DNA from: a bacterium | GTDB taxonomy: Bacteria; Myxococcota_A; Bradymonadia; UBA7976; UBA1532 | Assembly: GCA_030427205.1 (NCBI GenBank) | Contig: JAUHXC010000011.1 | Location: 172,016 to 236,015 of the forward strand | Length of the DNA: 64,000 nt | Direction: 5' to 3' | Shown: positions 8,504 through 38,006 of the stretch, one piece after another | Numbering within the stretch: position 1 is the stretch's first letter | Layout: the number at the start of each line of letters is the position of its first letter | The notes under the pieces: generated by a model | Database searches by the model: none | Told to the model about the DNA's origin: nothing | Seen by the model: only the letters and a program-made list of their open reading frames with translations | Program-made: the position numbers and the translations under genes

Positions 8504-8623
8504 CGTGATTCGGGCGAGGCATGGTGTGTCTCGGGCGTGTCATTGCGCCAGGGCAGGGTGGGGGGTATCCTGCGCCCCTTCCCGCCGGGCGCGGGGCTCG
8601 ACGAATGTGAGGAACAGCCGGGG

Positions 8624-9460
8624 ATGAGCAAAACGAACCGCAAGGAAGTGCGCAAGAACGTGCCCCGGCTCGAGACCGCCGTGCCCGACTTCCGGCTGGT
8701 GGCCCACGGCGCCACCGACGTCGGCCGTCGGCGCGAGGTCAACGAAGACTCCTTCCTCATCCTGCCGCGCAATCACGTCTGGATCGTCGCCGACGGCATG
8801 GGCGGGCACGCGGGCGGTCAGGTGGCGAGCACGCTGACCATCGGCACGGTGGGCGACGCGCTCGTGCGCCGGCTCGCCGACGCCGAGGAGTCCGCCGAAG
8901 CGCCGCTCAACGTCGCCGCGCTCGTCGAGTCGTCGGTGCTCGAGGCGTGCCATACCGTCTTCGACACCGCCCGCGAGAACCCCGAGCTGACCGGTATGGG
9001 CAGCACGGTCACCGCGATGATGGTGCACGGCGCCGAGGCCTGGTTCGGCCACGTGGGCGACAGCCGGGCCTATCTGGTGCGCGAGGGCAAGATCCATCAG
9101 GTCACCGAAGACCACTCGCTGGTGCAGGAGCACGTGGCCGCGGGGCTCATCACCCCCGAGCAGGCGCGGGTCTCGGTCATCCGCAACATCATCACCCGCA
9201 GCATCGGCTTCGAGCGCGACGTCAAGGTCGACATCGGCGCGGTGCCGCTCGAGCGGGGCGACGTCTTCCTCCTGTGCTCCGACGGGCTGACCGGCCACGT
9301 CGAAGACCACGAGATCCTCGAGATCATCGAAGGCAACAAGCGCGGGGCGGTGCCCAAGATCCTCATCGACCTGGCCAACAGCCGGGGCGGCGAAGACAAC
9401 TGCACGGTGATCCTCGTCGCGGTCACCGGCCGCCGGGGCCGCAGCCGCAAGGCCAGCTGA
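8624..9460 (+). CDS. PP2C-family Ser/Thr protein phosphatase
   Basis: ATG 8624 after GAGGAA RBS; motifs ATDVGRRREVNEDS, ADGMGGHAGG, GDSRAYL, LCSDGL, GGEDNCTVIL typical of PPM/PP2C. Confidence 0.85.
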   Translation: MSKTNRKEVRKNVPRLETAVPDFRLVAHGATDVGRRREVNEDSFLILPRNHVWIVADGMGGHAGGQVASTLTIGTVGDALVRRLADAEESAEAPLNVAALVESSVLEACHTVFDTARENPELTGMGSTVTAMMVHGAEAWFGHVGDSRAYLVREGKIHQVTEDHSLVQEHVAAGLITPEQARVSVIRNIITRSIGFERDVKVDIGAVPLERGDVFLLCSDGLTGHVEDHEILEIIEGNKRGAVPKILIDLANSRGGEDNCTVILVAVTGRRGRSRKAS

Positions 9461-9472
9461 CCGCGCCCCGCG

Positions 9473-11008
9473 GTGAAGACCCCCGATCCCCGACCCACCC
9501 TCTCGGTCTGCCTCATCGTGCGCGACGAGGCCGCCATGCTCGGCCCGTGCCTCGAGAGCGTGAGCGCGCTCGCCGATCAGATCGTCGTCGTCGATACCGG
9601 CAGCGTCGACGCCACCGTCGACATCGCCCGGGCGCACGGGGCCGAGGTGCATCACTTCAGCTGGTGCGACGACTTCGCCGCCGCCCGCAACGCCAGCCTC
9701 TCCCATGCCCGCGGCGACTTCGTGCTGGTGCTCGACGCCGACGAGCGGCTGGCCCCCGACGCCGCCGACCGCATCCGGGCGGTGATGGCCGCCGAGCCGG
9801 CCGGGGCGCCGCCGACGGTGCACCTGCCGCTGATCGACAACCGCGACGCCGCCGGACAGGCCCTGGGCGCCGACTTCATGCCCCGCCTGTGGCGCAACCG
9901 CCCCGAGCTGCGCTTCACCGGGCGGGTCCACGAGCAGATCGGGGTCGGCGTCGGCGGCTTGCGGCAGGCGTTCGACGACCGCATCCGCATCATGCACCTG
10001 GGCTACGACCCGGATTACGCCGCCGAGCGCGGCAAACGGGCCCGCAACCGCGCGCTGCTCGAAGCCGAGCGGCGCGAACGCCCCGGCGACCCGACCATCG
10101 CCTTCTATCTGGCCAAGGAGGACTACGCCGAGGGCCGCGACGCCGAGGCTCTGGCCGGGTTTCGCCGGGCGATCGACGGCGCGGGGGCCAACCTGTCGCT
10201 GTCGGCGACGCTCTTCGCGGTCGAGTGCCTGCGCAACCTCGGCCGCCACGCCGACGGGGTGGCCCTGGCCCGCGCCGGCCTCGACCGGGCGCCGAGCTAT
10301 GGCGACCTGTGGTTCGTCGCCGGGCGGACGGCCCTCGAAGGCGGCGACCCGGAGACCGCGCTGACGCTGCTCGCCGAGGCCGGCCGCGCGCCCACGGGGC
10401 TGGCGGCCATCGCGTTTCGCGACCTGTCCGTCGGCGAGTGGCGCGCCGCGCTGACCACCGCCCGGGCCCACGCCGCCCGCGCCGGGCAACTCGACGGCGC
10501 GCGCCAGCCCGAAAGCGCCATCCAAGACCGCCGCGCGGCCGCCGCGATCTACTCCCGACTGCGTCGCCGACTGCCCGACGCCGAGCGCCTCGTCGCCGAT
10601 CTGGAGGCCGCCGAGCTGGCGGTGGCCCTGCGCGACCCCGAAGGCGCGTGGCGCCTGCTCGCGCCGACGCTCGACGCCGCGCCGGTCGACGGCGGCGAGA
10701 TCCTGCTCGGGCTGGTGCAGCTGGTCATCGAGCTCGCCGGCCTGCAGCCGGCCTACGGGCTGCTGGTCGACGCGCTCTCGGCCCACCCCGCGCTGCTGCA
10801 TCGGCTGCCGCTGGTGGGCGCCGCCGCCGAGCTGGCCGAGGCGCTGGGCGACGGCGCGCTGACCCAGTGGCTGCACATCTGCACTCTGCTCGACAGCCCG
10901 CATCCGGTGCACTACCGCGCCCTGGCCGACCTGCGCGACGCCGCCGGCGAGGCCGAAGAGGCCGCCCGGCTGCGGTCCCGCGCCGCGTCCCTCGACGACG
11001 CGCCGTAG
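9473..11008 (+). CDS. family-2 glycosyltransferase with C-terminal TPR-like region
   Basis: GTG start 13 bp after phosphatase stop; LSVCLIVRDEAAMLGPCLESV...VVVDTGSVD...VLVLDADERL (GT2 DxD fold) followed by helical repeat region. Confidence 0.7.
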   Translation: MKTPDPRPTLSVCLIVRDEAAMLGPCLESVSALADQIVVVDTGSVDATVDIARAHGAEVHHFSWCDDFAAARNASLSHARGDFVLVLDADERLAPDAADRIRAVMAAEPAGAPPTVHLPLIDNRDAAGQALGADFMPRLWRNRPELRFTGRVHEQIGVGVGGLRQAFDDRIRIMHLGYDPDYAAERGKRARNRALLEAERRERPGDPTIAFYLAKEDYAEGRDAEALAGFRRAIDGAGANLSLSATLFAVECLRNLGRHADGVALARAGLDRAPSYGDLWFVAGRTALEGGDPETALTLLAEAGRAPTGLAAIAFRDLSVGEWRAALTTARAHAARAGQLDGARQPESAIQDRRAAAAIYSRLRRRLPDAERLVADLEAAELAVALRDPEGAWRLLAPTLDAAPVDGGEILLGLVQLVIELAGLQPAYGLLVDALSAHPALLHRLPLVGAAAELAEALGDGALTQWLHICTLLDSPHPVHYRALADLRDAAGEAEEAARLRSRAASLDDAP

Positions 11009-11014
11009 CGGCGG

Positions 11015-11689
11015 CTACTCGGCGAGCTTGTAGCCCACCCCGCGCACCGTCTCGATGGTCTCCGCCGACAGCCCGGCGGCCACCAGCTTCTTGCGCAGCG
11101 TCTTGATGTGCACGTCGACCGTGCGCTCGGTCACCGCCACGTCCGGCCCCCAGGCCCGGTCGAGCAGCTGCCCGCGCTCGAAGACGCGGCCCGGCGCGCC
11201 GACGAAGACCGCCAGCAGGTCGAACTCGGTGCGCGACAGGCCCAGCTCGGTGCCTTCGGCCCACGCTTGGCGCTTCTCCGGATCGACCCGCAGCCGGGGC
11301 ACGCCGGTGGGCCCCGCCGGGCTCACCCGGCGCAAGACCGCGCGCACGCGGGCCACCATCTCCCGCGGTGAGAACGGCTTGTCCACGTAGTCGTCGGCCC
11401 CCAGCTCGAGCCCGACGATGTGCTCCACCGGGTCGTCGTGGCTCGACAGGATGATCACCGGGATGCGGTCGCCGTCGGCCCGGGCGCGCAGCCAGTCGAG
11501 GCCGTTGCCGTCGGGCAGCATCAGGTCGAGGATGACCAGCGCCGGCGGCGCCTGGGTCAGCGCGGCGTCGGCCTCGGCCAGGGTGCGGGCGGTGCGGGTC
11601 TCGAAGCCGGCGCGCCCGAGGGCATAGGCCAGGCTCTCGGTGATGGCCGGCTCGTCGTCGACGAGCAGGATCGTCTGGGGGGCGGGCAT
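11015..11689 (-). CDS. OmpR-family response regulator (receiver + winged-helix DNA-binding)
   Basis: ILLVDDEPAI...LVILDLMLPDGNGLD...RTVDVHIKTLRKKL...GVGYKL. Confidence 0.85.
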   Translation of the reverse strand: MPAPQTILLVDDEPAITESLAYALGRAGFETRTARTLAEADAALTQAPPALVILDLMLPDGNGLDWLRARADGDRIPVIILSSHDDPVEHIVGLELGADDYVDKPFSPREMVARVRAVLRRVSPAGPTGVPRLRVDPEKRQAWAEGTELGLSRTEFDLLAVFVGAPGRVFERGQLLDRAWGPDVAVTERTVDVHIKTLRKKLVAAGLSAETIETVRGVGYKLAE

Positions 11690-11725
11690 CGCGACTCCCG
11701 ACGCTCGGCGCGGTCGCCGGCCAGG

Positions 11726-12388
11726 TCAGCCGGCCGGGCTCGGCTCGGGGCCGGTCTCCATGTTCGCGCGCACGTTGCGGATGATGGTGCGGATCCTGTG
11801 CTGCCAGTTGTAGACCACCTGGGTGGTGACCTGCATCACCTCCGCGACATCGGCCGGCTTTCGCCCGTCGACGTAGATGTAGGTGAAGATGAGCTTGCCC
11901 CGCTCGGGCAGGGTGTCGATCAGCGCCGCCTTCAGCCGCCCGGCGAGCTCGCGGCTCATCGCCTGCGCCTCCGGGTCGGCGCCGCCGGAGAGCCCGTGCA
12001 GGTCGTCGAGGTTGGTCATGGTGACGTTGCCTCCGCTCTTCTGGGTCTCGGTCTTGATGCGCTCGCCGCGGGTCTTCGAGCGGGCGACGACGGTCACGTA
12101 GGCCTCCAGGTTGCCCCGCGTCGGGTCGAACTTGCGCAGCACCGCCGCGTCCTTGTCGAGGATGTGGGTCCAGACCTCCTGCACCAGATCGTCGCCGTCG
12201 TGCGCCCCGAGCGTGAAGCGGCCGCGCTTGCGCAGGGCGTAGCGCACGGTGCGCCGGATGATCGGCATCAGCCACTCGACGAGGTCGCGCATCGCCCGCC
12301 GGTCACCGCCGAGCGCCTTCTTCAAGAGATCAACGCCCGCGTCGACGGCCACCGACATGGCCACCGTCAGCAACCAGAAGCCATTCAT
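11726..12388 (-). CDS. ECF (sigma-70 family) RNA polymerase sigma factor
   Basis: Region 2 (DLVQEVWTHILDK) and region 4 HTH (IFTYIYVDGRKPADVAEVMQVTTQVVYNWQHRIR); start overlaps upstream anti-sigma stop (ATGA). Confidence 0.7.
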   Translation of the reverse strand: MNGFWLLTVAMSVAVDAGVDLLKKALGGDRRAMRDLVEWLMPIIRRTVRYALRKRGRFTLGAHDGDDLVQEVWTHILDKDAAVLRKFDPTRGNLEAYVTVVARSKTRGERIKTETQKSGGNVTMTNLDDLHGLSGGADPEAQAMSRELAGRLKAALIDTLPERGKLIFTYIYVDGRKPADVAEVMQVTTQVVYNWQHRIRTIIRNVRANMETGPEPSPAG

Positions 12389-13179
12389 TCGGACCCCTCC
12401 TTCCGGTCGACGTAGTCGAACTCGACCGCGTGCCAGCGTACGCCGCCCTCGTCTTCAGAGGTGGGTAGGGATTCGCCGGCGAGCCCTTGCAACTGCGCCT
12501 CGTCGAAGGCGAAGGCGACGTGCAGGCTGCGCTGACCGAGCCGGTCTCCGAGGATCCGGGTGATCGGCGCTTCGAGGGTCCACGCGCCGCCGGCACCGAA
12601 CTGCCCTTGCGCCTTCGAGAGTTCGAGCTTGCCGCCCTCATCGACGAAGGCCCGGGCGGTGATGGCCGCGTCTGCTTTGGCGTCGAGGTCCTCGCCGGGC
12701 TTGAGGATCACCGTCACCGTCGCCTCGTTGTCGACGCGATACGGTCCTCCGACGGACGGCCCGCGGAGCGGCGACTCGTCCCCGCGGACCAGCTTTTGGG
12801 CGCCGACGACGTCGAAGACCGCGTAGCCCGGCGGCGGATCGACCGTGGGCCGCATCACGAAGAAGGCCACCGCCGCCGCCAGGCTCAGCAGGGTCACCGT
12901 CGGGGCGATCCACCGCTTCGGGGGCCGCACCGCGCGGGTGCCGTGCTTGACCGCCCAGGCCTGTACGAACGCGCTCGGCGCGTCCTCGAACTCGTCGATG
13001 AAGGCCCGCGCCGCCGGATCGGCCGCCAGCATGACTTCGGCGCGGGCGGTCTCCACCTCGTCGAGCTCACCGGCGCGCCAGGCCATCAGGAGCGCCAGAT
13101 CGGCCTCCTCCTCGGGGGGGTCGAGCAGCGGCCCCAGGCCGCTGGCGAGGGCGTCGATGTCGTCGTCGCTGAGGGTCAT
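12385..13179 (-). CDS. putative transmembrane anti-sigma factor
   Basis: Cytoplasmic N-term (Glu/Asp-rich), single TM (WIAPTVTLLSLAAAVAFFVM), periplasmic C-term; 4-bp overlaps with CHAT gene upstream and sigma gene downstream. Confidence 0.5.
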   Translation of the reverse strand: MTLSDDDIDALASGLGPLLDPPEEEADLALLMAWRAGELDEVETARAEVMLAADPAARAFIDEFEDAPSAFVQAWAVKHGTRAVRPPKRWIAPTVTLLSLAAAVAFFVMRPTVDPPPGYAVFDVVGAQKLVRGDESPLRGPSVGGPYRVDNEATVTVILKPGEDLDAKADAAITARAFVDEGGKLELSKAQGQFGAGGAWTLEAPITRILGDRLGQRSLHVAFAFDEAQLQGLAGESLPTSEDEGGVRWHAVEFDYVDRKEGSE

Positions 13180-15995
13180 TGCGCTTCCTCACAGTGTCGC
13201 AGGGATCGTTCGGGTGGAATCGGGATGTGCGGCCGGCCGACGAGGCGCCAGTTGTTCCAGCTCTCGTTGCCTGCGTCGAGCAAGGCGCGGGTCGCCGCAC
13301 GCAGCGCCGGTCCCGGCCGATGGTCGCCGCCGTGCACGTAGAAGGCCTCGCTGAACAGCTTCGCGTGCTCGTCCCGCACTGGCCGATCGGTGGCGACGAC
13401 CGCGCCGCTGCCCGCCACGAGCAGCGCCTCGGGCAGTCCGAGCACGTCGTCGCGGGTCGACAGCGCGTCGGCGCCGGTCTGACAGCCGTTGAGCACGACC
13501 AGCCCGGCGACGGCCTGTTCGAGCCCGAGGATGTCGAAGACGTCAAAAGGCTTCTTGCCGGCCATGACCAGATGCGTCGACCAGGGGTGATCGGGGATCG
13601 ACTCGCCATGCCCCGAGAAGTGCACCAGCCGCGATGCCTTCAAGCTGCCTTCGAGCTTCGGGCCGGTCGCCGCCTCCCGGGCGAAGAGGCGCGAGCCGGG
13701 CAGGGTCCGCGCGAGCCACTCCCCCTCGGCGTAGGCATTGCCCAGCTCACTGGTCGGGTCGGCCAGGATCGTCGGTGGTCCGCACGGGATCTTGCGTTCG
13801 GCGACGAGCAGCTCGCCCGCCGGCAGCAGGGAGACCGAATACGGCCGATAGTTCGCCGCGCGGAAGGCGACCGCCACGACGTCCGGGTGGCCGCCCGCGA
13901 CCACATACAGATGCGCGGTGCTCCACGGCGGCGTGGGCAGGGTGTCGTCGTCGACGAATTCGGGCAGCGGGGTGGTCTCGTAGGCCGTCGCGCTGGCCCA
14001 CAGCGCGACCCGGCCGCCATCGCGCCGGGCCACCACCATGATGGTCTGCCCCGGCTCCAGCGCCGCCTGGACCTGCGCCGGGTCGACCCCGGTCAGCGGC
14101 AGCTCGGCGTCGAGGAAGTCGGCGACCGCCTTCACCGCAGCCCGCTGACGCGCCTCCGCCCTCTTCAGCTCGCGCTCCGATGCGCGCTGAGCCGCGCCCG
14201 CCGTGCGGCGAATCCGCTGCTTCAGGGCGCGGATCTCGTCGGCGATTTCGGCGATCCGCCCGCGCAGCCCACGCAAGACGTCGCGCTTGTCGGCGTCGAG
14301 GCTGTCGGCGAGTCGAGCGGCGAGCATCGTGCGCAGGACGCGGCCCTGGTTGCGGTCGGCCAGGGTGAACGCTCGCCGCAGGCTCCTCTGGTCGCCCCGC
14401 TCGATGGCCAGCGTCAACGAGGCGCGCAGCAGCTCGGCCCGGTCGTCGAGGAATCCGATCCGCTGCTCGAGCGGGTCCGTCAGCGCAGCCAGCCGCTTCA
14501 GCCGCGTCCGGGCTCGGGCGAAGTGCGTCTCGGCGGTCTGCAGATCACCGGCGGCGCGGGCCGCCTGTCCCAGCCCCAGCGCTGCCCGCCAGCCGTAGTC
14601 CCCGCCGTGAACTCCCCAGTGCGCCACCGCCGCCGCCTCGGCGGCCTCGAAGGGCGCCCGTGCCTCCGCCCAGCGCCCCTGAGCCAGCTCGAGCCGCCCC
14701 GTCAGCAGCGACGCGAACCCGCGGATCTCGTCGGCGGCGCTGCTCGCGAAGGGCGCGATCAACGCCGCCGCGGTCGACCAGTGTCCGTCGAGAAGCTCGA
14801 CGAGGGCCAGATTGAGCTGTACGTGGGCCCACGCGCTCGACCGGGTATCGGCCAGGAGGGCCGCCGCCTGCTCGAAGAGCCGACGGACCCGGCCGAAGTC
14901 ACGGGGGATCGCGCCGCGCTCCATGGCTTGCAGCAGGACGAAGCCGGCGTTGCTCGCGAAGCTCGCCCGGGTCTCGGGATCCAGCGTCGGGATGTCGACC
15001 AGCGGCTCGATCAGCTCGACCGCCGCCCGATGGTTGCCGAGGGACTGCGCCAGCGCCGCTCGGATCTGGCCCGTATTGGCCGCCAGCTCGTCCACGGCCG
15101 GACCGGCGCGCTTGATGAGGTCGGTCACGGCGACGGCCGCCGCGTGCGCTTCGCGCCAGCGCGCGGTGAGGTAGTACAGCTGCAGGGAGACATCGGTCAG
15201 GCGCAGGCGGGCCTCGGCGTCGAGCTCGGCGGCGATCGACCGCGCCTCGTCGAGGTACGCCGCGGCGGTGGTGAAGTCCGAGCGGACCAGCGCCCAGAAC
15301 GCCGCGGCGCACAACCGGCTCACCCGCTCCGACGGCACGCGCTGGCGCGCCGCCAGCTCGGCCGCGCGGACGTAGGCCGCCTCGCTGACCCGGCGGTGAT
15401 CTTCATCCGGGCCGCAGAGGCTCTTCGCCTTGTTCGCCGCCAGGAGGGTCGCCCACAACGCCACCTCGTCTTCGCTCTGTCGATCGACGATGGTCGCGAT
15501 CTCGGTCTCGCTCGCGCAGCGCGCGGCCTCGTCTTCGGGGTCGCCCTCGACCTCCGCGGCCAGCGTCACGATCCGGGCCACCGCCGGCAGCTGCTTGGGT
15601 GGCCTGCGCCATTCGGCCGGCCAGCGGGCCACGGTGAAGCCCGCCTGGCGCAGCTGCAGCTCGCCGGGGCTGAGGGGCGGATCGTTCTCGACGACGAGGA
15701 AGTTCATCTCACCCCTCGCCTCGGTCCGATGATCCAGCGGGAAGATACGGCCGTCGGCGTCCACCCAGCGCAGCGCCAGCCCGAGCGGGCTCGGCACCCG
15801 AACGATCGGCCGCTGCTCGTCGTCGAACCAGCGGACCGGCCGGCCGTCGCGCAGGGCGATCGCCCGCCGGCCGTGCAGCTCGACGTCGGGCATCGGTCGC
15901 TGCGCCGCGGCCGATGCGCTCGGCTCTTCGGCAGCGGAGACGCCGCCCAGGACGATGGCGACCAGCCAGAGAGCATGCAGTGGGGCACAACGCAT
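13176..15995 (-). CDS. secreted TPR-repeat protein with C-terminal CHAT (caspase-like) protease domain
   Basis: Signal peptide MRCAPLHALWLVAIVLGGVSAAEE; long helical TPR-like region; C-terminal VHFSGHG ... LVVLNGCQTG His/Cys dyad arrangement of CHAT domains. Confidence 0.65.
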   Translation of the reverse strand: MRCAPLHALWLVAIVLGGVSAAEEPSASAAAQRPMPDVELHGRRAIALRDGRPVRWFDDEQRPIVRVPSPLGLALRWVDADGRIFPLDHRTEARGEMNFLVVENDPPLSPGELQLRQAGFTVARWPAEWRRPPKQLPAVARIVTLAAEVEGDPEDEAARCASETEIATIVDRQSEDEVALWATLLAANKAKSLCGPDEDHRRVSEAAYVRAAELAARQRVPSERVSRLCAAAFWALVRSDFTTAAAYLDEARSIAAELDAEARLRLTDVSLQLYYLTARWREAHAAAVAVTDLIKRAGPAVDELAANTGQIRAALAQSLGNHRAAVELIEPLVDIPTLDPETRASFASNAGFVLLQAMERGAIPRDFGRVRRLFEQAAALLADTRSSAWAHVQLNLALVELLDGHWSTAAALIAPFASSAADEIRGFASLLTGRLELAQGRWAEARAPFEAAEAAAVAHWGVHGGDYGWRAALGLGQAARAAGDLQTAETHFARARTRLKRLAALTDPLEQRIGFLDDRAELLRASLTLAIERGDQRSLRRAFTLADRNQGRVLRTMLAARLADSLDADKRDVLRGLRGRIAEIADEIRALKQRIRRTAGAAQRASERELKRAEARQRAAVKAVADFLDAELPLTGVDPAQVQAALEPGQTIMVVARRDGGRVALWASATAYETTPLPEFVDDDTLPTPPWSTAHLYVVAGGHPDVVAVAFRAANYRPYSVSLLPAGELLVAERKIPCGPPTILADPTSELGNAYAEGEWLARTLPGSRLFAREAATGPKLEGSLKASRLVHFSGHGESIPDHPWSTHLVMAGKKPFDVFDILGLEQAVAGLVVLNGCQTGADALSTRDDVLGLPEALLVAGSGAVVATDRPVRDEHAKLFSEAFYVHGGDHRPGPALRAATRALLDAGNESWNNWRLVGRPHIPIPPERSLRHCEEAQ

Positions 15996-16084
15996 CGTCT
16001 GGTGCTACGTGAGCCGACGCGACGTGTCCAGGGATCGGGGTGTTTCATGGGTCTATCAACCACTTACGGCCGGCTCGATACCGC

Positions 16085-17233
16085 TCAGAACCACGGCGAC
16101 GCGGCGGCCGCCGCCGAGCCCACCGCGAGGCTCGCGGCCACGGCGGACGCGCTCAGGAGCCAGCGGGACCGCCGGCGGCTGCGCTCGCCCGGCGCGCGAC
16201 TGCGCCGGACCGAGCCGGTGCCGTCGCCGCCGTCCCGGGCCCGCTCGGCCTCGTGCTCGGCGAAGCGCGCCAGCAGCTCGGCGCTCGGCGGGTCGATGAG
16301 CGTATCGTCCTCGCCGCCGAAGAGCCCGGTCAGCTCGGCGAGCGCGGCGCTCATCGCCCGCGGGTCGGCGAACCGCGAGCTGGGGGACTTGGCCATCGCC
16401 CGGGTGATGACCGCGCTCAGCTCGCCGGTGGGGTCGACCTCCAGCGGCAGCCGCGGCACCGGATCGACCGCGTGGCCGAGCAATACGGTCTCGAGCGTGC
16501 CGCGGAAGGGCGCGTGGCCGGCGAGCATCTCGAAGAGCACGACGCCGAGCGAGTACTGGTCGGCCGCCGGGCCCACCGGCAGCTCGGCCAGCGGCTCGGG
16601 GGCCATGTACAGCGGGCTGCCGAGCATCCAGCCGGCCTGGGTCAGGTCTTCGTCGTCGTCGTCGAAGCCGTCCTCGCGCCGGGCGAGGCCGAAGTCGATG
16701 AGGGTCACCTGCTCGTGCCCGAAGCCATCCCGCCGCAGCAGGATGTGGGCCGGCTTGATGTCCCGGTGCACCACGCCGTGGCGGTGGGCGACGGCGAGGG
16801 CGTCGAGCACCTGCCGGGCGATGTCGAGCGCCCGCGCCGGCGCCAGGGCGCCCTCGGTGTCGATCACCCGCTCCAGCGAGGTGCCCTCGACGAGCTCTTC
16901 GACGATGTACAGCCCGCCCGACTCGGGGCCCTCGTCACGCAGGGTGCCATAGCGCAGGAGCCCGACGATCGACGGGTGGTCGAGCAGCTCGAGGGCCCGC
17001 ACCTCGCGCAGGAAGCGCATGCGGTGCTGCATGTCGTGGGCGTTGGGGCCGGTCAGCAGCTTGACCGCCACCGACCGGCCCGATGGCCGTTGCTCTGCGC
17101 GGTAGACGGTGCCTTGCACCCCGGCCCCGAGGCGCTCGACCAGGTCGAACTCACCGGCGATGGTCCGGCCGATCCAGGGATCGACGGTCTCGGCGGCGTT
17201 CGGGGCGGCGACGGCGGGGTCGGAGTGGCGCAT
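16085..17233 (-). CDS. Hanks-type Ser/Thr protein kinase with C-terminal TM segment
   Basis: Internal start MRHSDPAV (cat 17231..17233); GAGVQGTVY, AVK, HRDIKPAHILL, DFGLAR, APE motifs; C-term RWLLSASAVAASLAVGSAAAA; track ORF extended upstream through non-proteinlike sequence. Confidence 0.85.
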   Translation of the reverse strand: MRHSDPAVAAPNAAETVDPWIGRTIAGEFDLVERLGAGVQGTVYRAEQRPSGRSVAVKLLTGPNAHDMQHRMRFLREVRALELLDHPSIVGLLRYGTLRDEGPESGGLYIVEELVEGTSLERVIDTEGALAPARALDIARQVLDALAVAHRHGVVHRDIKPAHILLRRDGFGHEQVTLIDFGLARREDGFDDDDEDLTQAGWMLGSPLYMAPEPLAELPVGPAADQYSLGVVLFEMLAGHAPFRGTLETVLLGHAVDPVPRLPLEVDPTGELSAVITRAMAKSPSSRFADPRAMSAALAELTGLFGGEDDTLIDPPSAELLARFAEHEAERARDGGDGTGSVRRSRAPGERSRRRSRWLLSASAVAASLAVGSAAAAASPWF

Positions 17234-17410
17234 GATGACCTCGGGGGCGGAGGGTTCGTCGAGATCTAGGGCGGGCGACGGATTTTCTTTCGTTGGCGGG
17301 CCATGATTTTTCGATCGAGATATCGGGGGCCTTTCCGATCGGCCCCGGCGGTTGTCGCCGGGCGACGCCGATGCCAAGATGCGGCCACGACAACCCACGG
17401 GAGCCCTCTG

Positions 17411-17899
17411 ATGCGTATCGTCCTGCTGTCCCTCACGATGCTCGCCCTCGCCGTCGCCTGCGGTCCCAACCCCGAGCCCAAGCCCGACGCGCCGGCGGAG
17501 GCCACGAGCAGTGACCCCCGGCCGATCATCATCACCTGCGGCTCGTGCCGGGTGGAGGTCTGCTACGACACCGCCAACCCCGAGCGGCTCGGCAACGTCA
17601 AGCTCGACCTGCGGCCGACCGCCGACGGCGAGCCGCTCGTCGGCGACTGGCAGGCGGCGCTGCTCGAGCTCGAGCCCCCGTCGGGCGGCGCGCAGGGCCT
17701 CGCGCTCAAGACCGACGCCTGGAAGGACAGCGGCCCGATCCTGGCCTCGGTGAAGGACCCCAAGCTGCAGCCGGTCTCCGGCGGCTGGGCCAAGGCCAAG
17801 GCCACGCTGACCCTCACCTGGAAGGACGGCAAGCAGGTCCGCTCGCACAAGTTCACCGCCAAGGACGGCCTGCGGGTCAACGTCATGTCCTGCAAGTAG
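17411..17899 (+). CDS. hypothetical lipoprotein
   Basis: MRIVLLSLTMLALAVACG lipobox; ATG 17411. Confidence 0.45.
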   Translation: MRIVLLSLTMLALAVACGPNPEPKPDAPAEATSSDPRPIIITCGSCRVEVCYDTANPERLGNVKLDLRPTADGEPLVGDWQAALLELEPPSGGAQGLALKTDAWKDSGPILASVKDPKLQPVSGGWAKAKATLTLTWKDGKQVRSHKFTAKDGLRVNVMSCK

Positions 17900-18072
17900 G
17901 AGTCTGTAGTGCATAGCCCGACACATCGCCCAGCACGGTCCCGTTCACCGATTTCGGTGTCGTCAGGCGCTCGACATACGTCGAGTATCTCTGCGGCCCT
18001 CCTCCTTGAACTCGGCGAACGGCCCCGCACCGGGCTCGGTCGTCTACGCCCTACAGCCTCCTAGTCCGGCCC

Positions 18073-19560
18073 GTGTCGCACCACCCTCAATCGGCGGCGG
18101 TGGTGGTCGGCGTCGACCACTACCCCGACCCGGCCATCGCCGATCTGCGCGGCGCGGTGGCCGACGGCCGGGCCATGGCCCGGCTGCTCGTCGAACACTT
18201 CGGCTTCGCGCCCGATCGCGTCGTGACCCTCTTCGACGAACGGGCGACCGCCGCCCGCATCGAAGGGGCCGTCGACTGGCTGGCGCGCACCGTCGGCCCG
18301 GAGGGCGCGGCGGTCTTCTTCTTCGCCGGGCACGGGGCGCAGCGCTTCGACGACTCGGGGGACGAGTCCGACGACTTCGACGAGACCTTCGTGCCCCACG
18401 ACAGCGGCCGCGGCGCGCGGCCCGATCGCGACCTGACCGACGACTGGATGCGCGTCCGGCTCGAGCGGCTCGCCAAGCGGGCGGCGAGCGTCACCGCCAT
18501 ATTCGACTGCTGTCACTCGGGCACCATGGGCCGGGCGGAGGGCTACACCGGCGTGCGTGGGGCCGCGCCGGTCAAGGGCCCGCGGCGCGCCCGCGGACCG
18601 GCCCTGCGCCGCGCCGGCGGCGACCTGCCCTATGTGCTGCTCGCGGCGGCCGCCGCCGACGAGGCGGCCCACGAGAAGACCGTCGGCGAGAAGCCGCAGG
18701 GGGTCTTCACCCGGGCGCTGGTCGGCGCGCTGGCGGCGAGCACGGCCCGGGACTCGTGGCGCACCCTCATCGCCCGGGTCGCCGACGACGTCGGCCGGGC
18801 GCAGGCCGAGGGGCAGCGGCAGACCCCGCAGCTCGAAGGCGCCCATCGCGATCGACGGCCGTTCTCCACCGCGCAGCCCGAGGCGCGCTGGGCGCCGGCC
18901 GAGGCCGACGGTGGGGGCATCGCGGTGGCCCTCGGCGCGCTGCACGGCGTCGCGATGGATACGGTGCTGACCATCGAGCCCATCGGGGGGCAGACAGGCC
19001 CGCTGAACGCCCGGGTGGTCGATCTGGGGCCGTTCTCGTGCCGCTGCGTACCGCTGGACGGGCGAGCGGTCGACGGGCCGCTGCGGGCCTTCCCGCCGCC
19101 CCAGCGGCCGTCTCTCTGGGATCTGACCGCCGATCCGACCTATGCCGCCGACCCGTTCGACCTCGTCTTCGACGCCAGCGGGCTCGTCGACGACGACGGG
19201 GCGCAGGTGGTGCACGCGGGCGACGCGCTGACGCTGACCTTCGACAATACCGGCAACCGGCGGGTGCACGTCGCGCTGGCGGCGATCGACGTCGACGGCC
19301 GGGTGCGGGTGCTGGCGCCCGAGCCGGGCGGCGAGATGCAGATCGCGCCCTTCGGCCGCCACGCCGAGATCATCGAAGCCGAGCTGCCCCGCGAGCGCCC
19401 GGGCGGCATGCGCTGGCGGCTGGTGCTCGTCGTCAGCAGCGCGCGCTTCGACGCCGGCCTGCTCGAGACCGCGGCGCGTACGATCATCCCCCCGATAAAG
19501 AATCTGCTGCTGGCGCTCTATCCCATGGTGGTGCGGGTGCTGCCCCCGCCCGAGCGCTGA
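18073..19560 (+). CDS. caspase-family (peptidase C14) protein with C-terminal beta-rich domain
   Basis: Caspase His/Cys dyad FFFAGHGAQ ... AIFDCCHSGT; GTG start as in ORF track (no good SD, start uncertain). Confidence 0.7.
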   Translation: MSHHPQSAAVVVGVDHYPDPAIADLRGAVADGRAMARLLVEHFGFAPDRVVTLFDERATAARIEGAVDWLARTVGPEGAAVFFFAGHGAQRFDDSGDESDDFDETFVPHDSGRGARPDRDLTDDWMRVRLERLAKRAASVTAIFDCCHSGTMGRAEGYTGVRGAAPVKGPRRARGPALRRAGGDLPYVLLAAAAADEAAHEKTVGEKPQGVFTRALVGALAASTARDSWRTLIARVADDVGRAQAEGQRQTPQLEGAHRDRRPFSTAQPEARWAPAEADGGGIAVALGALHGVAMDTVLTIEPIGGQTGPLNARVVDLGPFSCRCVPLDGRAVDGPLRAFPPPQRPSLWDLTADPTYAADPFDLVFDASGLVDDDGAQVVHAGDALTLTFDNTGNRRVHVALAAIDVDGRVRVLAPEPGGEMQIAPFGRHAEIIEAELPRERPGGMRWRLVLVVSSARFDAGLLETAARTIIPPIKNLLLALYPMVVRVLPPPER

Positions 19561-19575
19561 GCCACCGGAGACGTC

Positions 19576-21960
19576 ATGCCCGAAGAGAGACAGCGCGCCG
19601 AGGCCGGCGCGAAGCCCGATGAGTCCCGCGCCGGCTGGCGGGCCCTCATTGTCGGCATCGACCGCTTCGCCCGGGTCGGCGGTCTGCAGGGCGCCGCCCA
19701 GGACGCCGCGCAGGCCGAGGCGTTCGCCCGCGAGGGCCTGCGCATCCCGCCCGAGAACATCACCGTGCTCACCAACGAGGCGGCCACCCGCGAGGCGGTG
19801 ATCGCGGCCCTGCGCGCGCTCGGCGACGCCGAGCTGACCGCCGACGATCAGGTGTTCGTGCACATCTCCAGCCACGGCACCCGCATGCTCGACCCGCTCG
19901 ACCAGAGCCCCAGCGGCTTCATCGAGTGCCTGGTGGTCTACGACAGCGGCCCGGGCGGCGCGTGGCACATCCCCGACCTGACCATGGGCGCGCTTTTCGA
20001 CCGCGTCACCCGCAAGACCGAGCGGCTGACGGTGGTGATCGACACCTGCCACTCGGGCTCGGCCACCCGCAGCAACGTGCGGCTGACGAACACCGACAAG
20101 CGCTCGCCGCCGGCCGACCTCGACGCACACATCCGCGCCGAGGGCTCCGGCGTCCTCGACGGCACCATGCGCTATGTGGTGCTCGCCGCCTGCCAGGACC
20201 GGGAGCTGGCCTTCGAACACCACGAGCGGGTCGGCGACCAGACGATCGTCTCGGGGCTCTTCTCACGCTTCCTCTATCCCGCGCTGCGCGCGGCGCGCAG
20301 CGACACCTCGTACCGCATGCTGATGGAGCGGGTGGCGGTGCAGGTCAGCGGCCGGCAGAGCCAGCACCCGCTCTGCGAGGGCCGCGCCGATCGGGCGATC
20401 TTCGGCGGGGCCGACGTGCGGGTCGACCGCTTCTTGACGGTGGTCGGCGAGCGCATCGGCAGCGTCGCCATCGACGGCGGCACGCTGCACGGGCTGCGGC
20501 CGGGCGACCGCGTGGCGTTCTACGGGCCCGAGCTGCGCACGCTGGACCAGCTGAAGGCCGGCGCCGACGACGTACCGGTCGAGCCGCTGGCCATCGGTAC
20601 GCTCACCGCGGTGGACAGCACCCGCAGCAGCGCGCGTATCGAGCCGCCGCCCGAAGGCCGGCCGGCGCCCGAGAGCCTGATGTTCGCCCGCGTATTGCGC
20701 GAAGGGCCGCTGACCGATGGCGGCACCGTGCGCTTCGAGGTCGAGCCCGGGGCCCGGCCGCTCGGCAAGCCGCCGCACTACATCCAGTGGCGGCTGGCCG
20801 AGCCGGGCGAGGTGCCCGACACCGTGGTGAAGGTGGGGCACACGCAGATCGAGCTGCTCGACGCCGCCGGCCACCAGCGGGTCTCGCCGCAGCCCCGCTC
20901 GGGCGAGATCTGGGACAGCATCTCGATCATCGCCCGGGTCGATCGGCTCAAGCGCCTGCGCAACCCCGACCGCGGCTCGCTGCTGCAGGACGGCTTCGAG
21001 ATTCGGGTGCGGCGGCTGGTCGACGATCACGACGCCCGCAAGAGCCCGGTGATCGAGCCGACGCGGGGGCGCGTCGTGCTGCCCTACGATCCTGGCGCGC
21101 CGACGACCTGGTACATGACCGAGCTGATCAACCGCACGACCCGCACCGCGCGGCCGCATCTGCTGCTGCTCAACGCCGACTACAGCGTCGTGCCGCTGCT
21201 CTCGCAAGCCTCGGGCGCGCGCGCGGTGGACGACGGACGGGCTGTCTTCGTCGGCCATCGAGACCAGTCCCAGCGCTTCGCCGCGTTTCTGCCCGGCGAC
21301 GTACCCGGCGACGCATGGTGGGTCCGGGCCGACAATACCTTGCTGCTGCTGGCGAGCCGGCGACCGATCAACGTCGACCTGCTCCGCCAGGGCGGGATCC
21401 GCAGCCAGCCGCCCCAGGGCCGCACCCCCGAGCGCGACAGCCTGACGAACCTGCTCGCCGACTGCGCCGCCGGCCGACGCATGCTGCGTCGACGAGCGCC
21501 GGAGGACTGGGGCGCCCAGCACTTTCAGATCACGGTGCTGCGCCGCCCCGCCGAGGTGCGTCCGGTCGGCGCGGGCGCGCTGCCCATCGGCCTCGGCTTC
21601 GACGCCGCCGGCATCGAGGGCACCCTCTGCGCCGCCGAGTTCGACCGGATGGCGCTCTTCACCCCGCTCGACCGCCCGCCGCTGGAGTCCTTGTCCGTCG
21701 CCGGCCTCGAGCCGGTGCTCTCACCCGCCCGCGGGTCGGGCACCTCGCCGCTGGTGGTGCGCGTCGTCGGCAAGGCGGCCCCCGGGGCGAAGCTGACCCT
21801 GAAGGTGCCCACCGAAGATCAGCCGCTGGTGCCGGTGGCCTTCGATCGCGCGGGCCATACCGTCGTCGGTCGACCGGGCGGGCCCGGCGAGGCCGTCTTC
21901 GACCTGCCTACGGCCTTCGACCGCCCGTTCCTGCTGGCCCGCCCCCGCTCGAGCTCATGA
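19576..21960 (+). CDS. caspase-family (peptidase C14) protein, large, paralog of upstream gene
   Basis: VFVHISSHGTRM ... VVIDTCHSGSA dyad; post-caspase segment GSVAIDGGTLHGLRPGDRVAF parallels GIAVALGALHGVAMDTVLTI of the upstream protein. Confidence 0.7.
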   Translation: MPEERQRAEAGAKPDESRAGWRALIVGIDRFARVGGLQGAAQDAAQAEAFAREGLRIPPENITVLTNEAATREAVIAALRALGDAELTADDQVFVHISSHGTRMLDPLDQSPSGFIECLVVYDSGPGGAWHIPDLTMGALFDRVTRKTERLTVVIDTCHSGSATRSNVRLTNTDKRSPPADLDAHIRAEGSGVLDGTMRYVVLAACQDRELAFEHHERVGDQTIVSGLFSRFLYPALRAARSDTSYRMLMERVAVQVSGRQSQHPLCEGRADRAIFGGADVRVDRFLTVVGERIGSVAIDGGTLHGLRPGDRVAFYGPELRTLDQLKAGADDVPVEPLAIGTLTAVDSTRSSARIEPPPEGRPAPESLMFARVLREGPLTDGGTVRFEVEPGARPLGKPPHYIQWRLAEPGEVPDTVVKVGHTQIELLDAAGHQRVSPQPRSGEIWDSISIIARVDRLKRLRNPDRGSLLQDGFEIRVRRLVDDHDARKSPVIEPTRGRVVLPYDPGAPTTWYMTELINRTTRTARPHLLLLNADYSVVPLLSQASGARAVDDGRAVFVGHRDQSQRFAAFLPGDVPGDAWWVRADNTLLLLASRRPINVDLLRQGGIRSQPPQGRTPERDSLTNLLADCAAGRRMLRRRAPEDWGAQHFQITVLRRPAEVRPVGAGALPIGLGFDAAGIEGTLCAAEFDRMALFTPLDRPPLESLSVAGLEPVLSPARGSGTSPLVVRVVGKAAPGAKLTLKVPTEDQPLVPVAFDRAGHTVVGRPGGPGEAVFDLPTAFDRPFLLARPRSSS

Positions 21961-22892
21961 CCGCGCGCCCGATCCACCTCGCCCTGCTCGCGCTGGCCGC
22001 CGCGTGCAGCGATCCGCCGCCCGCGGCCCCACCGGCCGCCGAGACGCCGCCCGCCGAAGCGGCCCCCGCGGCCCCGACCGGCCCGACCGTCGCCGAGCGG
22101 CGGGCCCGATTCGAAGCCCGCCCGACGGTCGACCTGCCCGACGACCTGCCGCCCGCGTGGCGCGGCTACGCCAAGGCGCTCGACGGCCGGCTGGTCGAGG
22201 CGCGGCACGCGGTGCGCAGCCACCCCGGCCGCGCCGGCTATCGCGCGGTCTCGCTGACGATCCGGGTCTTCGGCCTCGACGACGCCGTCCGGGCGCGGGT
22301 GCACGGCGCGCTGGCCGGGCTCGATCTGCCCGAGCTGCCGCCGCTGGCCGACGCCGGCGAAGACTTCTGGCGCGGCGAGGTGATCGTCGATGGGCCGGTG
22401 CGCTGGCGGATCGACATCGGCCGGCTGGTGGCCCCGCCCGGCGAGCCCCGAGAGCAGATCGTGGCCCTGGAGTGGACCCGCGAGCCGCCGCCGGCCGCGC
22501 CGGACGTGCGCGACTGCCGCAAGCCCCCCGCGGTGCCGGCGCCGGCGAGCGCGCCGGCGTGGCTCAGTCGCACGACGAGCAAACGCACCACCCGCCGCCG
22601 GGTCACCGCCGAGATCCGGCGCACCGCGAAGGCGAAGGCGATCGAAGAGCGCATCGAGCTGCGCATGCTCTTCCGCAACAGCTACGCCCACGACGAGCAC
22701 CTGCGCCATCTGGCCGAGGCGGCGGCCAAGGCCGGCTTCACCCGGGAGGGTGACGCGGGCACCCGCCAGCGCTGGGCGCACCCCGACGGCAGCCGGTTCA
22801 CCTTCGCGCCGGAGACCGCGGGTGATCTGAAGCTGGGGTGCACTCTGGCGGGGCCGGCCTTGCGGCTGACGCTCACCCGCTCGGGCGGCTGA
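21957..22892 (+). CDS. hypothetical lipoprotein translationally coupled to caspase gene
   Basis: ATGA overlap 21957..21960; MTARPIHLALLALAAACSDPPP (lipobox); 3' part of artefactual ORF 19926..22892. Confidence 0.5.
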   Translation: MTARPIHLALLALAAACSDPPPAAPPAAETPPAEAAPAAPTGPTVAERRARFEARPTVDLPDDLPPAWRGYAKALDGRLVEARHAVRSHPGRAGYRAVSLTIRVFGLDDAVRARVHGALAGLDLPELPPLADAGEDFWRGEVIVDGPVRWRIDIGRLVAPPGEPREQIVALEWTREPPPAAPDVRDCRKPPAVPAPASAPAWLSRTTSKRTTRRRVTAEIRRTAKAKAIEERIELRMLFRNSYAHDEHLRHLAEAAAKAGFTREGDAGTRQRWAHPDGSRFTFAPETAGDLKLGCTLAGPALRLTLTRSGG

Positions 22893-22953: not shown

Positions 22954-23430
22954 TCAGAGGGCCTTGATGCTGGTCAGGATCTTGGTGATGGCGGCGTCGT
23001 GCTTCTTGCCGGCGCCCTTCTCGCTGAAGCCGATGAGGACCAGCGCCTTGCCGTTGGGCGGCACCACGATCGCCAGCCCGACCTCGATCGCCTGGCCCTC
23101 CATGGTGCCGGTGCCCTCGGCTGCGAAGACCGGCATGCCGTTGGCCTTGCCCTCCTGGGGCTCGCCGCCCTGGAAGTTCTTGATGCCCATCTCGTCGAGC
23201 ATGCCGTCGAGCTCGTCCATCATCGCCTCGAGCGCCGGCTGATCGACGCCGAGGAAGATCGCGAAGACGGTCTCGTCGGGCGAGATGGTGCTGACCATCG
23301 GGCCCTGCATCTCGGTCTTCCACGCGTCGGGCAGGTGGTACTGCACCCCGGCCTCGGGGTGCTCGATCTCCTTGGCGAAGGCGGGACCGGCGACGAACAG
23401 GGCGGCGAGGCACAGCATGAGGGTACGCAT
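22954..23430 (-). CDS. hypothetical secreted protein
   Basis: Internal start MRTLMLCLAALFVAGPAFA (signal peptide), cat 23428..23430. Confidence 0.45.
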   Translation of the reverse strand: MRTLMLCLAALFVAGPAFAKEIEHPEAGVQYHLPDAWKTEMQGPMVSTISPDETVFAIFLGVDQPALEAMMDELDGMLDEMGIKNFQGGEPQEGKANGMPVFAAEGTGTMEGQAIEVGLAIVVPPNGKALVLIGFSEKGAGKKHDAAITKILTSIKAL

Positions 23431-31304: not shown

Positions 31305-31380
31305 GCCGACATAGCTCAGCTGGTAGAGCAGCTCACTCGTAATGAGCAGGTCGTCGGTTCAAGTCCGACTGTCGGCTCCA
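31305..31380 (+). tRNA. tRNA-Thr (anticodon CGT)
   Basis: Cloverleaf by hand: acceptor gccgaca/tgtcggc, D arm gctc-agctggta-gagc, anticodon stem gctca/tgagc with loop ctCGTaa, T arm gtcgg-ttcaagt-ccgac, encoded CCA. Confidence 0.85.
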
Positions 31381-33707: not shown

Positions 33708-33787
<80 letters not shown>

Positions 33788-33887
33788 GACTCGGACGGCT
33801 CTTTGACAGTCGGTCGGTCGAGGCCGCGCAGTTCATCGGGTGGCCGCCCACACGGCGCCGATGGTCCGTGCGAGGGCGAGCAAGTGC

Positions 33888-33960
33888 GCGCCTGTAGCTC
33901 AGTGGATAGAGCAGCGGCCTTCTAAGCCGTCGGTCGGTGGTTCGAGTCCACCCAGGCGTA
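33888..33960 (+). tRNA. tRNA-Arg (anticodon TCT)
   Basis: acceptor gcgcctg/caggcgt (G1-U72), anticodon stem gcggc/gccgt, loop ctTCTaa, T loop ttcgagt; no encoded CCA. Confidence 0.8.
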
Positions 33961-33966
33961 CCGTGT

Positions 33967-34044
33967 GGAGGATGTAGCTCAGTTGGTTAGAGCGCCGGTT
34001 TGTGGTACCGGATGTCGCGGGTTCAAATCCCGTCTTCCTCCCCA
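33967..34044 (+). tRNA. tRNA-His (anticodon GTG) with extra 5' G(-1)
   Basis: G-1 pairs with C73; anticodon stem ccggt/accgg loop ttGTGgt; T loop ttcaaat; encoded CCA. Confidence 0.8.
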
Positions 34045-34070
34045 ATTCTTCTCTCGGTGGCCGGGTGTGA

Positions 34071-34147
34071 GCGTCCGTAGCTCAGCTGGATAGAGCGTCG
34101 GACTTCGAATCCGCAGGTCGCAGGTTCGAATCCTGCCGGACGCGCCA
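34071..34147 (+). tRNA. tRNA-Arg (anticodon TCG as read from loop ctTCGaa)
   Basis: acceptor gcgtccg/cggacgc perfect, D arm gctc-agctggata-gagc, T loop ttcgaat, encoded CCA; backbone resembles bacterial Arg tRNAs. Confidence 0.7.
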
Positions 34148-34215
34148 CAGCATGCCCTCCGGGGGATGCGAGCCCGCCGCCGACCGTCGAGAGCAGGCCC
34201 GATCCGGGCCATCGT

Positions 34216-34288
34216 GGGCCATTAGCTCAATTGGCAGAGCAACGGACTCTTAATCCGCAGGTTGAAGGTTCGATTCCTTCATGGCCCA
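34216..34288 (+). tRNA. tRNA-Lys (anticodon CTT), copy 1
   Basis: acceptor gggccat/atggccc, anticodon loop ctCTTaa, T loop ttcgatt; followed by CCC (no CCA). Confidence 0.85.
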
Positions 34289-34293
34289 CCCCC

Positions 34294-34322
34294 GCCCCGA
34301 CCCGCCATGCGCGGGTCGGGGC
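34294..34322 (+). other. perfect 12-bp stem / 5-nt loop hairpin in spacer between the two tRNA-Lys copies
   Basis: gccccgacccgc-catgc-gcgggtcggggc; no T-run, so likely processing/structural element rather than terminator. Confidence 0.5.
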
Positions 34323-34384
34323 GGTGCTCTCGACCCACGGCACCGACCCCGGCGAGGCGCGTACCGCCCTCCTCCTCCTCCTTC

Positions 34385-34460: not shown

Positions 34461-34466
34461 CATCCT

Positions 34467-36752: not shown

Positions 36753-38006
<1,254 letters not shown>

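Follow-up and report, generated by a model that had tools for sequence, protein, structure and literature searches.

In Myxococcus xanthus, the membrane anti-sigma factor DdvA carries a periplasmic TPR-CHAT domain; its CHAT part has been proposed to clip a linker, leading to proteolysis by RseP and to the release of DdvS, a sigma factor of the extracytoplasmic function (ECF) type, which then turns on an island encoding a cyclic-oligonucleotide-based antiphage signalling system (CBASS) and CRISPR (PMC11506125). In the type III-B module of Haliangium ochraceum, which comprises SAVED-CHAT, PCc-sigma, PCi, the kinase PCk and PCaspase, the CHAT protease activated by cyclic triadenylate (cA3) cleaves and activates the C14-type PCaspase, whose own targets are PCi, the sigma factor and numerous further proteins (Steens et al.). 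PCaspase and the caspase of type IV Thoeris are promiscuous, Arg-specific executioners in defence. Here, we describe a locus comparable with both systems in a 64,000-nucleotide stretch (the window) of contig JAUHXC010000011.1 (assembly GCA_030427205.1, positions 172,016 to 236,015 of the forward strand) from a bacterium of the Bradymonadia (Myxococcota_A). Two adjacent genes of the window encode metacaspase-like proteases of the Peptidase_C14 family, called C14-A and C14-B hereafter. Judging from the sequences, this pair is one arm of an eight-gene cluster that combines three predicted caspase-fold proteases with a putative ECF sigma factor switch.

A conserved gene cluster around the C14 pair

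Contigs coding for relatives of C14-A and C14-B correspond to 7 distinct loci. In 7/7, a lipoprotein gene, the C14-A gene and the C14-B gene follow each other in that order, with a Ser/Thr kinase gene divergently oriented, and the C14-A proteins share 46-80% identity. The C14-A gene precedes the C14-B gene in all loci, the two being separated by a 15-bp gap or overlapping; the gene order whose recurrence the preliminary description of this region had proposed to check is thus found, A adjacent to B, in every related locus. The kinase gene opens a divergent operon of five genes on the minus strand (11015..17233), which is co-conserved with the C14 pair. The genes for a TPR-CHAT protease, a probable anti-sigma factor, an ECF-type sigma factor and a response regulator are found wherever the contig reaches: the set is complete in the window and in loci L005 and L006, and L009 extends to the CHAT gene. 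The outer flanks vary, with PP2C and GT2 genes in the window, ppk in L006 and an ABC transporter gene after C14-B in L003. Since the flanking genes vary while the eight genes persist, the eight-gene unit (11015..21960) travels together. The C14 pair cannot be put down to chance, given the E-values of its domains and its recurrence in 7 metagenomic loci that are independent of each other.

The G+C content is about 72% across the window and most of the long open reading frames (ORFs) are spurious mirror frames. The two C14 ORFs are real and intact, C14-A (495 amino acids) at 18073..19560 and C14-B (794 amino acids) at 19576..21960, both on the plus strand; the intergenic gap, previously given as 16 bp, measures 15 bp and contains GGAG. 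The C14 operon opens with the gene of a small lipoprotein of 162 amino acids (17411..17899, plus strand), whose LALAVAC lipobox confirms the lipoprotein gene reported ahead of the pair. Its lipobox and a CxxC motif are kept in 7/7 loci, and the protein has no Pfam or NCBIfam match. An accessory lipoprotein of 311 amino acids with an ALLALAAAC lipobox is encoded downstream (21957..22892, plus strand), its start overlapping the C14-B stop codon in an ATGA at 21957-21960, as reported. By inspection, the signal peptides of both lipoproteins end in a lipobox (L-[AS]-[GA]-C), upstream with LALAVAC followed by G and downstream with ALAAAC followed by S. The downstream lipoprotein is found only in the window and in L002, an 81%-identical locus (84% identity between the two lipoproteins), and its gene is absent after C14-B in L003 and L009; its translational coupling to C14-B is confined to this lineage, and it is therefore not a conserved partner of the proteases.

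The preliminary description had viewed the region as a self-contained module of two proteases and exported lipoproteins. The intact C14 pair and the conserved upstream lipoprotein agree with this view; the unconserved downstream lipoprotein and the overlooked regulatory operon do not.

Catalytic domains of C14-A and C14-B

The Pfam Peptidase_C14 profile (threshold 21.4 bits) is matched by C14-A with 87.6 bits (E 1.3e-24) and by C14-B with 52.7 bits (E 6e-14), and likewise by all 8 C14-A-type and 7 C14-B-type orthologues. The His/Cys dyad, represented by AGHG (His87) and DCCHSG (Cys147) in C14-A and by SSHG (His100) and DTCHSG (Cys158) in C14-B, is invariant across these same orthologues. In HMMER alignments, both dyads coincide with the catalytic His and Cys of Yca1 and CgMca1 (the yeast and Candida metacaspase-1) and of AtMC4. 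The profile matches and the aligned dyads support the earlier proposal of a caspase fold with an HG / D-x-C-H-S-G dyad in both proteins, and the dyad residues are conserved with respect to metacaspases of solved structure. Both proteins qualify for the caspase/hemoglobinase fold, and the structures nearest to both caspase domains are those of metacaspases and of Geobacter GSU0716.

Orthologue alignments revealed two further invariant Asp residues, one at position Cys-2 (D145 in C14-A, D156 in C14-B) and one in an LxGxxxD motif (D31 and D43, respectively), which we take to correspond to the acidic S1 pocket of TbMCA2. The TbMCA2 structure of McLuskey et al. from 2012 reportedly contains acidic S1-pocket Asp residues that confer Arg/Lys specificity. 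From these residues, C14-A and C14-B are probably specific for Arg or Lys at P1. C14-A further has an acidic loop (D93-D110) that can be aligned with that of the fungal metacaspases, and sequence inspection indicates Arg-rich linkers after the catalytic Cys in both proteins.

With the caspase domain starting as early as residue 8 (C14-A) or residue 22 (C14-B), neither protein has space for a signal peptide. The stretch of 21 residues ahead of the caspase domain of C14-B is charged, and no upstream extension of either ORF is possible. Inspection thus agrees with the preliminary description on the absence of a signal peptide in both proteins, and C14-A and C14-B are apparently catalytically intact and cytoplasmic. 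The profile of EACC1-associated caspases (NF047832) gives 67.4 bits with C14-A and 32.5 bits with C14-B, both below its 140-bit cut-off. The caspase domain of C14-A also matches Pseudomonas 'caspase family proteins' of about 586 amino acids.

Relatedness of the two copies

Pairwise alignment of C14-A and C14-B gives 28% identity and covers the caspase domain only. Profile-profile alignment of the two families joins residues 7-465 of C14-A with residues 20-606 of C14-B (probability 100, E 1e-45, 453 columns), bearing out the related beta-rich tails that had been noticed in the sequences. What the two have in common is the caspase domain along with a small beta-barrel and a beta-sandwich; an insert (about 360-490) and an extension at the C-terminus are particular to C14-B.

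In comparison with the closest relative, C14-A has a ratio of nonsynonymous to synonymous substitution rates (dN/dS) of 0.43 and C14-B one of 0.34, absolute values that are unreliable as dS is probably underestimated at this G+C content. The similarity of the two ratios indicates that neither copy is decaying. A recent duplication with one decaying copy, raised as a possibility in the preliminary description, is ruled out by the 28% identity, the dyads kept intact in the orthologues of both families and the similar dN/dS: the pair is old.

Full-length relatives are rare. For C14-A they are P0016-P0021 and the copy in L003 (46-80% identity), and for C14-B they are P0002, P0003 and the copies read from the loci. 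A scan of contigs of GTDB species representatives gave no orthologue (best match 36% identity), and neither did a scan of metagenome contigs (best match 43% identity). As both contig scans gave no orthologue, the C14-A/B family is known from the 7 Logan/ENA loci only.

Tail domains and the post-caspase module

C14-A consists of the caspase domain (residues 8-265), a small beta-barrel (about 276-335) and a DUF4384-like beta-sandwich (about 365-470). For C14-B, an AlphaFold2 model built from a 13-sequence alignment (mean predicted local distance difference test score, pLDDT, of 77; a single-sequence version with pLDDT 34 was unusable) contains the caspase domain (20-270), a beta-barrel (287-355), a second beta domain (372-428), a helix (445-460), a DUF4384-like sandwich (474-594), a helix plus strand (622-656) and a C-terminal beta-sandwich (665-790). 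The non-caspase domains of C14-B match generic beta-barrel and Ig/MG-like folds only, arguing that the protein has no second catalytic domain. The sandwich domain is at best DUF4384-like in sequence: the match of DUF4384 (PF14326, Pfam cut-off 27 bits) to residues 381-418 of C14-A (E 0.21, 12.2 bits) is below the cut-off, one member of the C14-B family reaches E 0.0012, and relatives with the same module reach 1.6e-4 to 8.5e-4.

An exhaustive hidden Markov model (HMM) search with residues 285-655 of C14-B retrieved 5526 cluster representatives with a limit of E<=1e-3, and 589 when the limit was E<=1e-30; a word-indexed C-terminal profile search gave only the query and one relative. This post-caspase module of about 370 amino acids is thus large as a family, unannotated and covered by Pfam only marginally. 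The proteins that bear it usually have lengths of about 640-710 or 1130-1200 amino acids. Among the 50 best matches, Peptidase_C14 is present in 37, a C-terminal DUF7379 alpha/beta-hydrolase in 16 and Trypco1 in 3, the remaining partner domains being patatin, nSTAND1, CHAT and TPR-S. Where such proteases have an alpha/beta-hydrolase or a Pepco (Trypco) partner, this partner has been shown to be a latent effector of death that cleavage sets free (bioRxiv 10.1101/2025.11.14.688446). By its sequence relationships, C14-B is a member of a large, defence-flavoured protease family, but it lacks a fused effector itself. The frequent fusion of the module to DUF7379, Trypco1, patatin or STAND domains makes the link to cell death and defence suggested in the preliminary description plausible.

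Three of the proteins with the module, P0005, P0008 and P0009 (L072 7058-10552), with lengths of 1150-1164 amino acids, combine a C14-B-type caspase and the module with a C-terminal DUF7379. They are surrounded by unrelated genes and look like single-chain protease-effector fusions.

The divergent regulatory operon

The first gene of the divergent operon encodes a Hanks-type Ser/Thr kinase of 382 amino acids with a hydrophobic C-terminal tail (16085..17233, minus strand, as for the other four genes; Pkinase 9.6e-45). It is followed by the gene of a TPR-CHAT protein of 939 amino acids (13176..15995; Pfam CHAT 7.7e-25), the third caspase-fold protease of the cluster. Its His/Cys dyad, located in the motifs HFSGHG and LNGCQTG, is invariant in orthologues, and the CHAT proteins of the loci extending this far have about 880-940 amino acids. 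By inspection, 4/4 orthologues carry an export signal: those of the window and L005 start with one of Sec type, those of L006 and L009 with a lipobox. The best sequence matches of TPR-CHAT in the PDB are to the Csx29 TPR-CHAT protein; they are weak (E 0.003) and cover the catalytic region.

The next gene (12385..13179) encodes a protein of 264 amino acids with an N-terminal helical cytoplasmic domain of about 85 residues, one transmembrane helix (about 91-110) and an outside domain of about 150 residues. This layout is kept in L005 and L006, and the counterparts in the loci have 250-276 amino acids. Residues 30-74 weakly match the N-terminus of anti-sigma-E (NF010501, E 0.015), and 4-bp overlaps join the gene to the CHAT gene on one side and to the sigma factor gene on the other. 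From its topology, the gene overlaps and this one weak match, the 264-amino-acid protein is probably a single-pass membrane anti-sigma factor. The adjoining sigma factor (220 amino acids, 11726..12388) matches the ECF-type profile TIGR02937 above its cut-off (8.3e-16), as well as Sigma70_r2 and r4_2, and is 45-62% identical to its orthologues in L005 and L006. The operon ends with the gene of an OmpR-family response regulator of 224 amino acids (11015..11689; Response_reg 9.9e-23, Trans_reg_C 8.4e-25), which occupies the same position in L005 and L006. No histidine kinase is encoded among the cluster genes.

Two promoter-like motifs lie within the 177-bp divergent region between the operons. 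One, rAAAG-N17-CTAGa (17266..17291, minus strand), is located upstream of the kinase operon and occurs with a fixed 17-nucleotide spacing in 7/7 loci; the other, TTGyCn-N17-CAAGAT (17352..17380, plus strand), precedes the lipoprotein/C14 operon and occurs in 6/7 loci. The rest of the intergenic DNA differs between loci, and a scan of this region with the sigma-70 consensus found nothing.

Genomic neighbourhood

Neither the eight genes of the cluster nor the genes next to them include CRISPR-Cas or CD-NTase genes, cas genes not having been scanned window-wide. Directly left of the cluster (8537-11008, plus strand), a phosphatase of the PP2C type is encoded together with a TPR-containing GT2 glycosyltransferase. 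This phosphatase might counteract the kinase of the cluster; L006 has a polyphosphate kinase at this place instead. On the other side, a small secreted protein is encoded between the accessory lipoprotein gene and ffh (22954-23178, minus strand), and, back on the left and farther out, a PEGA-domain outer-membrane beta-barrel protein is encoded at 5817-7247 (plus strand); neither has an evident link to the cluster. Farther away, eight tRNA genes occur within 850 bp (33708-34550) and three more nearby (31305-31377 and 40581-40856). They flank a stretch (34500-40600) in which the G+C content drops from about 0.73 to 0.65-0.67 and the AT skew reaches +0.21, and which could be an integrated or foreign segment.

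Similar arrangements in other lineages

Scans of genome and metagenome contigs provided about 140 unrelated caspase loci. About 25 of these hold two or more C14 ORFs, and in about 10 loci of other phyla a CHAT gene lies beside a C14 gene. The tandem C14 pairs of other phyla could not be sorted into A-like and B-like proteins, and an ancient, general A/B split was rejected.

The most revealing case is L013, in a metagenome-assembled genome (MAG) of Acidobacteriota (CAWHUF010000005.1, 3113-12022), which encodes an ECF sigma factor, a zf-HC2 anti-sigma factor, a TPR-CHAT protein, a C25-like ORF and a C14 protein. An ORF with a signal peptide seems to continue into the TPR-CHAT gene (probable frameshift), and the C14 protein lacks a signal peptide and carries the C14-B-type post-caspase module. 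From this gene content, L013 would follow the same logic as the cluster of the window, in another phylum.

Other combinations were noticed among these loci. Several of them have a kinase gene next to one or two C14 genes. A Ser/Thr kinase gene adjoins two tandem C14 genes in L040 (4474-12046, Pirellulaceae MAG OZ247499.1) and in L098 (3-5930). In L073 (7003-14056), a C14 gene directly precedes a CHAT gene, with a response regulator and a histidine kinase encoded upstream.

Possible mode of action and alternative explanations

The reading that we favour, tentatively and with somewhat less than an even chance, is that an envelope switch composed of TPR-CHAT, anti-sigma factor and ECF sigma factor controls the lipoprotein/two-metacaspase operon. 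The periplasmic TPR-CHAT protein would sense a signal through its TPR region and cut the outside domain of the anti-sigma factor, acting as a site-1 protease in the way proposed for DdvA. The cleavage would release the ECF sigma factor, which could then turn on the divergent operon of the lipoprotein, C14-A and C14-B. Modulation of the sigma factor by the kinase and by the orphan response regulator is possible; by analogy, and speculatively, the kinase may act on either the sigma factor or the response regulator. C14-A and C14-B would be made as latent cytoplasmic zymogens, with the beta-domain tails keeping them latent or recruiting partners; once activated, they would cleave cytoplasmic proteins, leading to growth arrest, dormancy or death, in defence or in developmental lysis. 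The cleavage of the anti-sigma factor by CHAT, the control of the C14 operon by the sigma factor, the relation between C14-A and C14-B and the outcome in death or defence are the steps that we infer. In favour of this reading are the conserved eight-gene set, the export signals and intact dyad of TPR-CHAT, the layout of the 264-amino-acid protein with its gene overlaps, the precedent of DdvA, the similar logic of L013, the metacaspase-like C14 proteins with their invariant dyad and Asp residues, the frequent death-effector partners of the C14-B module, the executioner role of PCaspase and of the type IV Thoeris caspase, and the conserved promoter-like motifs. C14-A and C14-B may form a heteromer, work as a two-step cascade or be enzymes that act in parallel. 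An activator/effector relation of the two C14 proteins, as put forward in the preliminary description, is possible; by gene content, TPR-CHAT is at least as good a candidate for the initiator, though it is exported, unlike the C14 proteins.

Several observations weigh against the control of the C14 operon by an envelope switch. Tandem C14 genes are common in bacteria, and pairing in itself is little informative. The 264-amino-acid protein has no zinc-binding anti-sigma domain (ASD) motif and no Pfam or PDB match, and sequence searches of the PDB with profiles of the sigma factor, the anti-sigma factor and CHAT revealed no link to DdvS, DdvA or SAVED-CHAT. The two promoter-like motifs have differing -35 parts and neither resembles a typical ECF promoter (AAC...CGT), which makes the step from the sigma factor to the C14 operon conjectural, and the reading does not account for what the lipoprotein, the kinase and the response regulator do. 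Finally, the cluster is located among housekeeping genes (ffh, gpsA) with no obvious defence island, and PADLOC gave only generic caspase and kinase matches.

The last two observations, together with a glycosyltransferase gene in the same neighbourhood and the absence of any known defence system among the PADLOC matches, would fit a non-lethal role, in which the cluster is an envelope-stress or developmental unit that processes a few substrates, such as the sigma and anti-sigma factors, the kinase or pre-lipoproteins. Large high-GC genomes contain many paralogous kinase, CHAT and caspase genes, which also counts for such a role, as does the lack of a fused toxic effector domain in C14-B, unlike many of its relatives. 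We nevertheless consider it unlikely, as relatives with the C14-B module are predominantly fused to domains of death-effector type and those bacterial caspase-like proteases of this kind that have been characterised are promiscuous; the dN/dS is also relatively high (0.3-0.7), as in conflict genes, in an estimate that is unreliable at 72% GC. The initiator and the executioner could alternatively both be found within the C14 pair itself, a self-contained cytoplasmic system tied to the flanking lipoproteins, with the regulatory genes being incidental. The strict A-then-B order with its 15-bp gap or overlap, the divergence of two copies that are both intact, the Arg-rich linkers after the catalytic Cys, which could be processing sites, and the upstream lipoprotein conserved in all loci would all be in line with such a pair. 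This explanation seems to us very doubtful, given that the regulatory operon is kept together with the pair over a range of 46-80% identity while the genes farther out vary, that the downstream lipoprotein is not conserved and that no feature tells an initiator from an executioner.

Another alternative is a direct cascade of the SAVED-CHAT/PCaspase type, in which CHAT would cleave and thereby activate C14-A, C14-B or both, and these would cut the sigma factor, its partner and perhaps the kinase. The gene content close to that of the published Haliangium module and the adjacency of CHAT and C14 genes in about 10 unrelated loci of other phyla speak for it, and PCaspase is listed among the abundant protease-associated modules (bioRxiv 10.1101/2025.11.14.688446). 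The TPR-CHAT protein has an export signal in 4/4 orthologues while the C14 proteins have none, and the same mismatch is seen in L013. With CHAT outside and C14 inside in both the window and L013, a direct CHAT-to-C14 cascade is disfavoured; the cluster, moreover, encodes neither a SAVED domain nor a cyclase and lacks CRISPR genes, and we regard such a cascade as improbable.

The envelope switch could also be extended into a complete outside-in relay, in which the exported TPR-CHAT protein senses an envelope or phage-derived protein in the periplasm and, by removal of the anti-sigma factor, signals to the sigma factor, gated by the kinase and the response regulator, and the sigma factor in turn to heteromeric or sequential metacaspase executioners, without CRISPR, CBASS or a nucleotide messenger. 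This more elaborate scheme is speculative and somewhat unlikely; if true, bacteria would have in it an analogue of extrinsic apoptosis, the kind that receptors set off, and L013 would follow the same scheme. That caspase-like proteases of bacteria carry out cell death in immunity has become known only lately (PCaspase, type IV Thoeris, caspase-effector pairs); to our knowledge, all the characterised cases have a cytoplasmic trigger. If the link between the envelope switch and the metacaspases is true, the cluster would be a tractable system in which to study how a periplasmic signal leads to caspase activity, what the substrates of periplasmic CHAT proteases are and why C14 genes occur in tandem.

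Comparison with known systems

The best sequence and structure matches of C14-A and C14-B are metacaspases and orthocaspase-like C14 proteins (AtMC4 6w8s, AtMC9 8a53, Yca1 4f6o, TbMCA2 4af8, GSU0716 3bij). They share with these the His/Cys dyad, the Asp at Cys-2 and the Asp of LxGxxxD, and C14-A also has the acidic loop of fungal metacaspases; the long beta-barrel and beta-sandwich tails of C14-A and C14-B are absent from eukaryotic metacaspases. The comparison with caspase-effector systems rests on the C14-B module, which is the one preceding DUF7379, Trypco1 or patatin in many relatives, P0005, P0008 and P0009 among them. In contrast to these proteins, C14-B ends in a plain beta-sandwich, and no hydrolase, Pepco, EACC1 or TIR gene is adjacent.

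The cluster resembles the Haliangium module in that a CHAT protein and a sigma factor of ECF-like kind are encoded with a small protein as partner, with a Ser/Thr kinase and with a C14 protease whose catalytic domain is N-terminal and whose regulatory domain is C-terminal; the dyad of C14-A (H87/C147) has positions similar to those of PCaspase (H79/C146). However, the CHAT protein of the window has TPRs and an export signal, without a match to SAVED or a sequence match to 8tl0, and CRISPR and CD-NTase genes are missing from the cluster. Its C14 genes number two rather than one, its partner protein is located in the membrane, and a lipoprotein and a response regulator are added.

As in DdvA/DdvS, the TPR-CHAT part of the cluster is predicted to be periplasmic, and the cluster looks like a split version of this switch. 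The anti-sigma factor (264 amino acids) and TPR-CHAT (939 amino acids) are here encoded by separate genes with a 4-bp overlap, and the N-terminal domain of the 264-amino-acid protein lacks the CHCC zinc motif. The two systems also differ in that the CHAT dyad of the window cluster is complete and conserved, and in the addition of the kinase and the response regulator. The adjacent candidate regulon consists of a lipoprotein and two metacaspases rather than of CBASS and CRISPR-Cas. We know of no envelope-facing TPR-CHAT/anti-sigma/ECF switch other than that of DdvA; what would be new in the present cluster is that such a predicted switch is joined to two metacaspase-like proteases.

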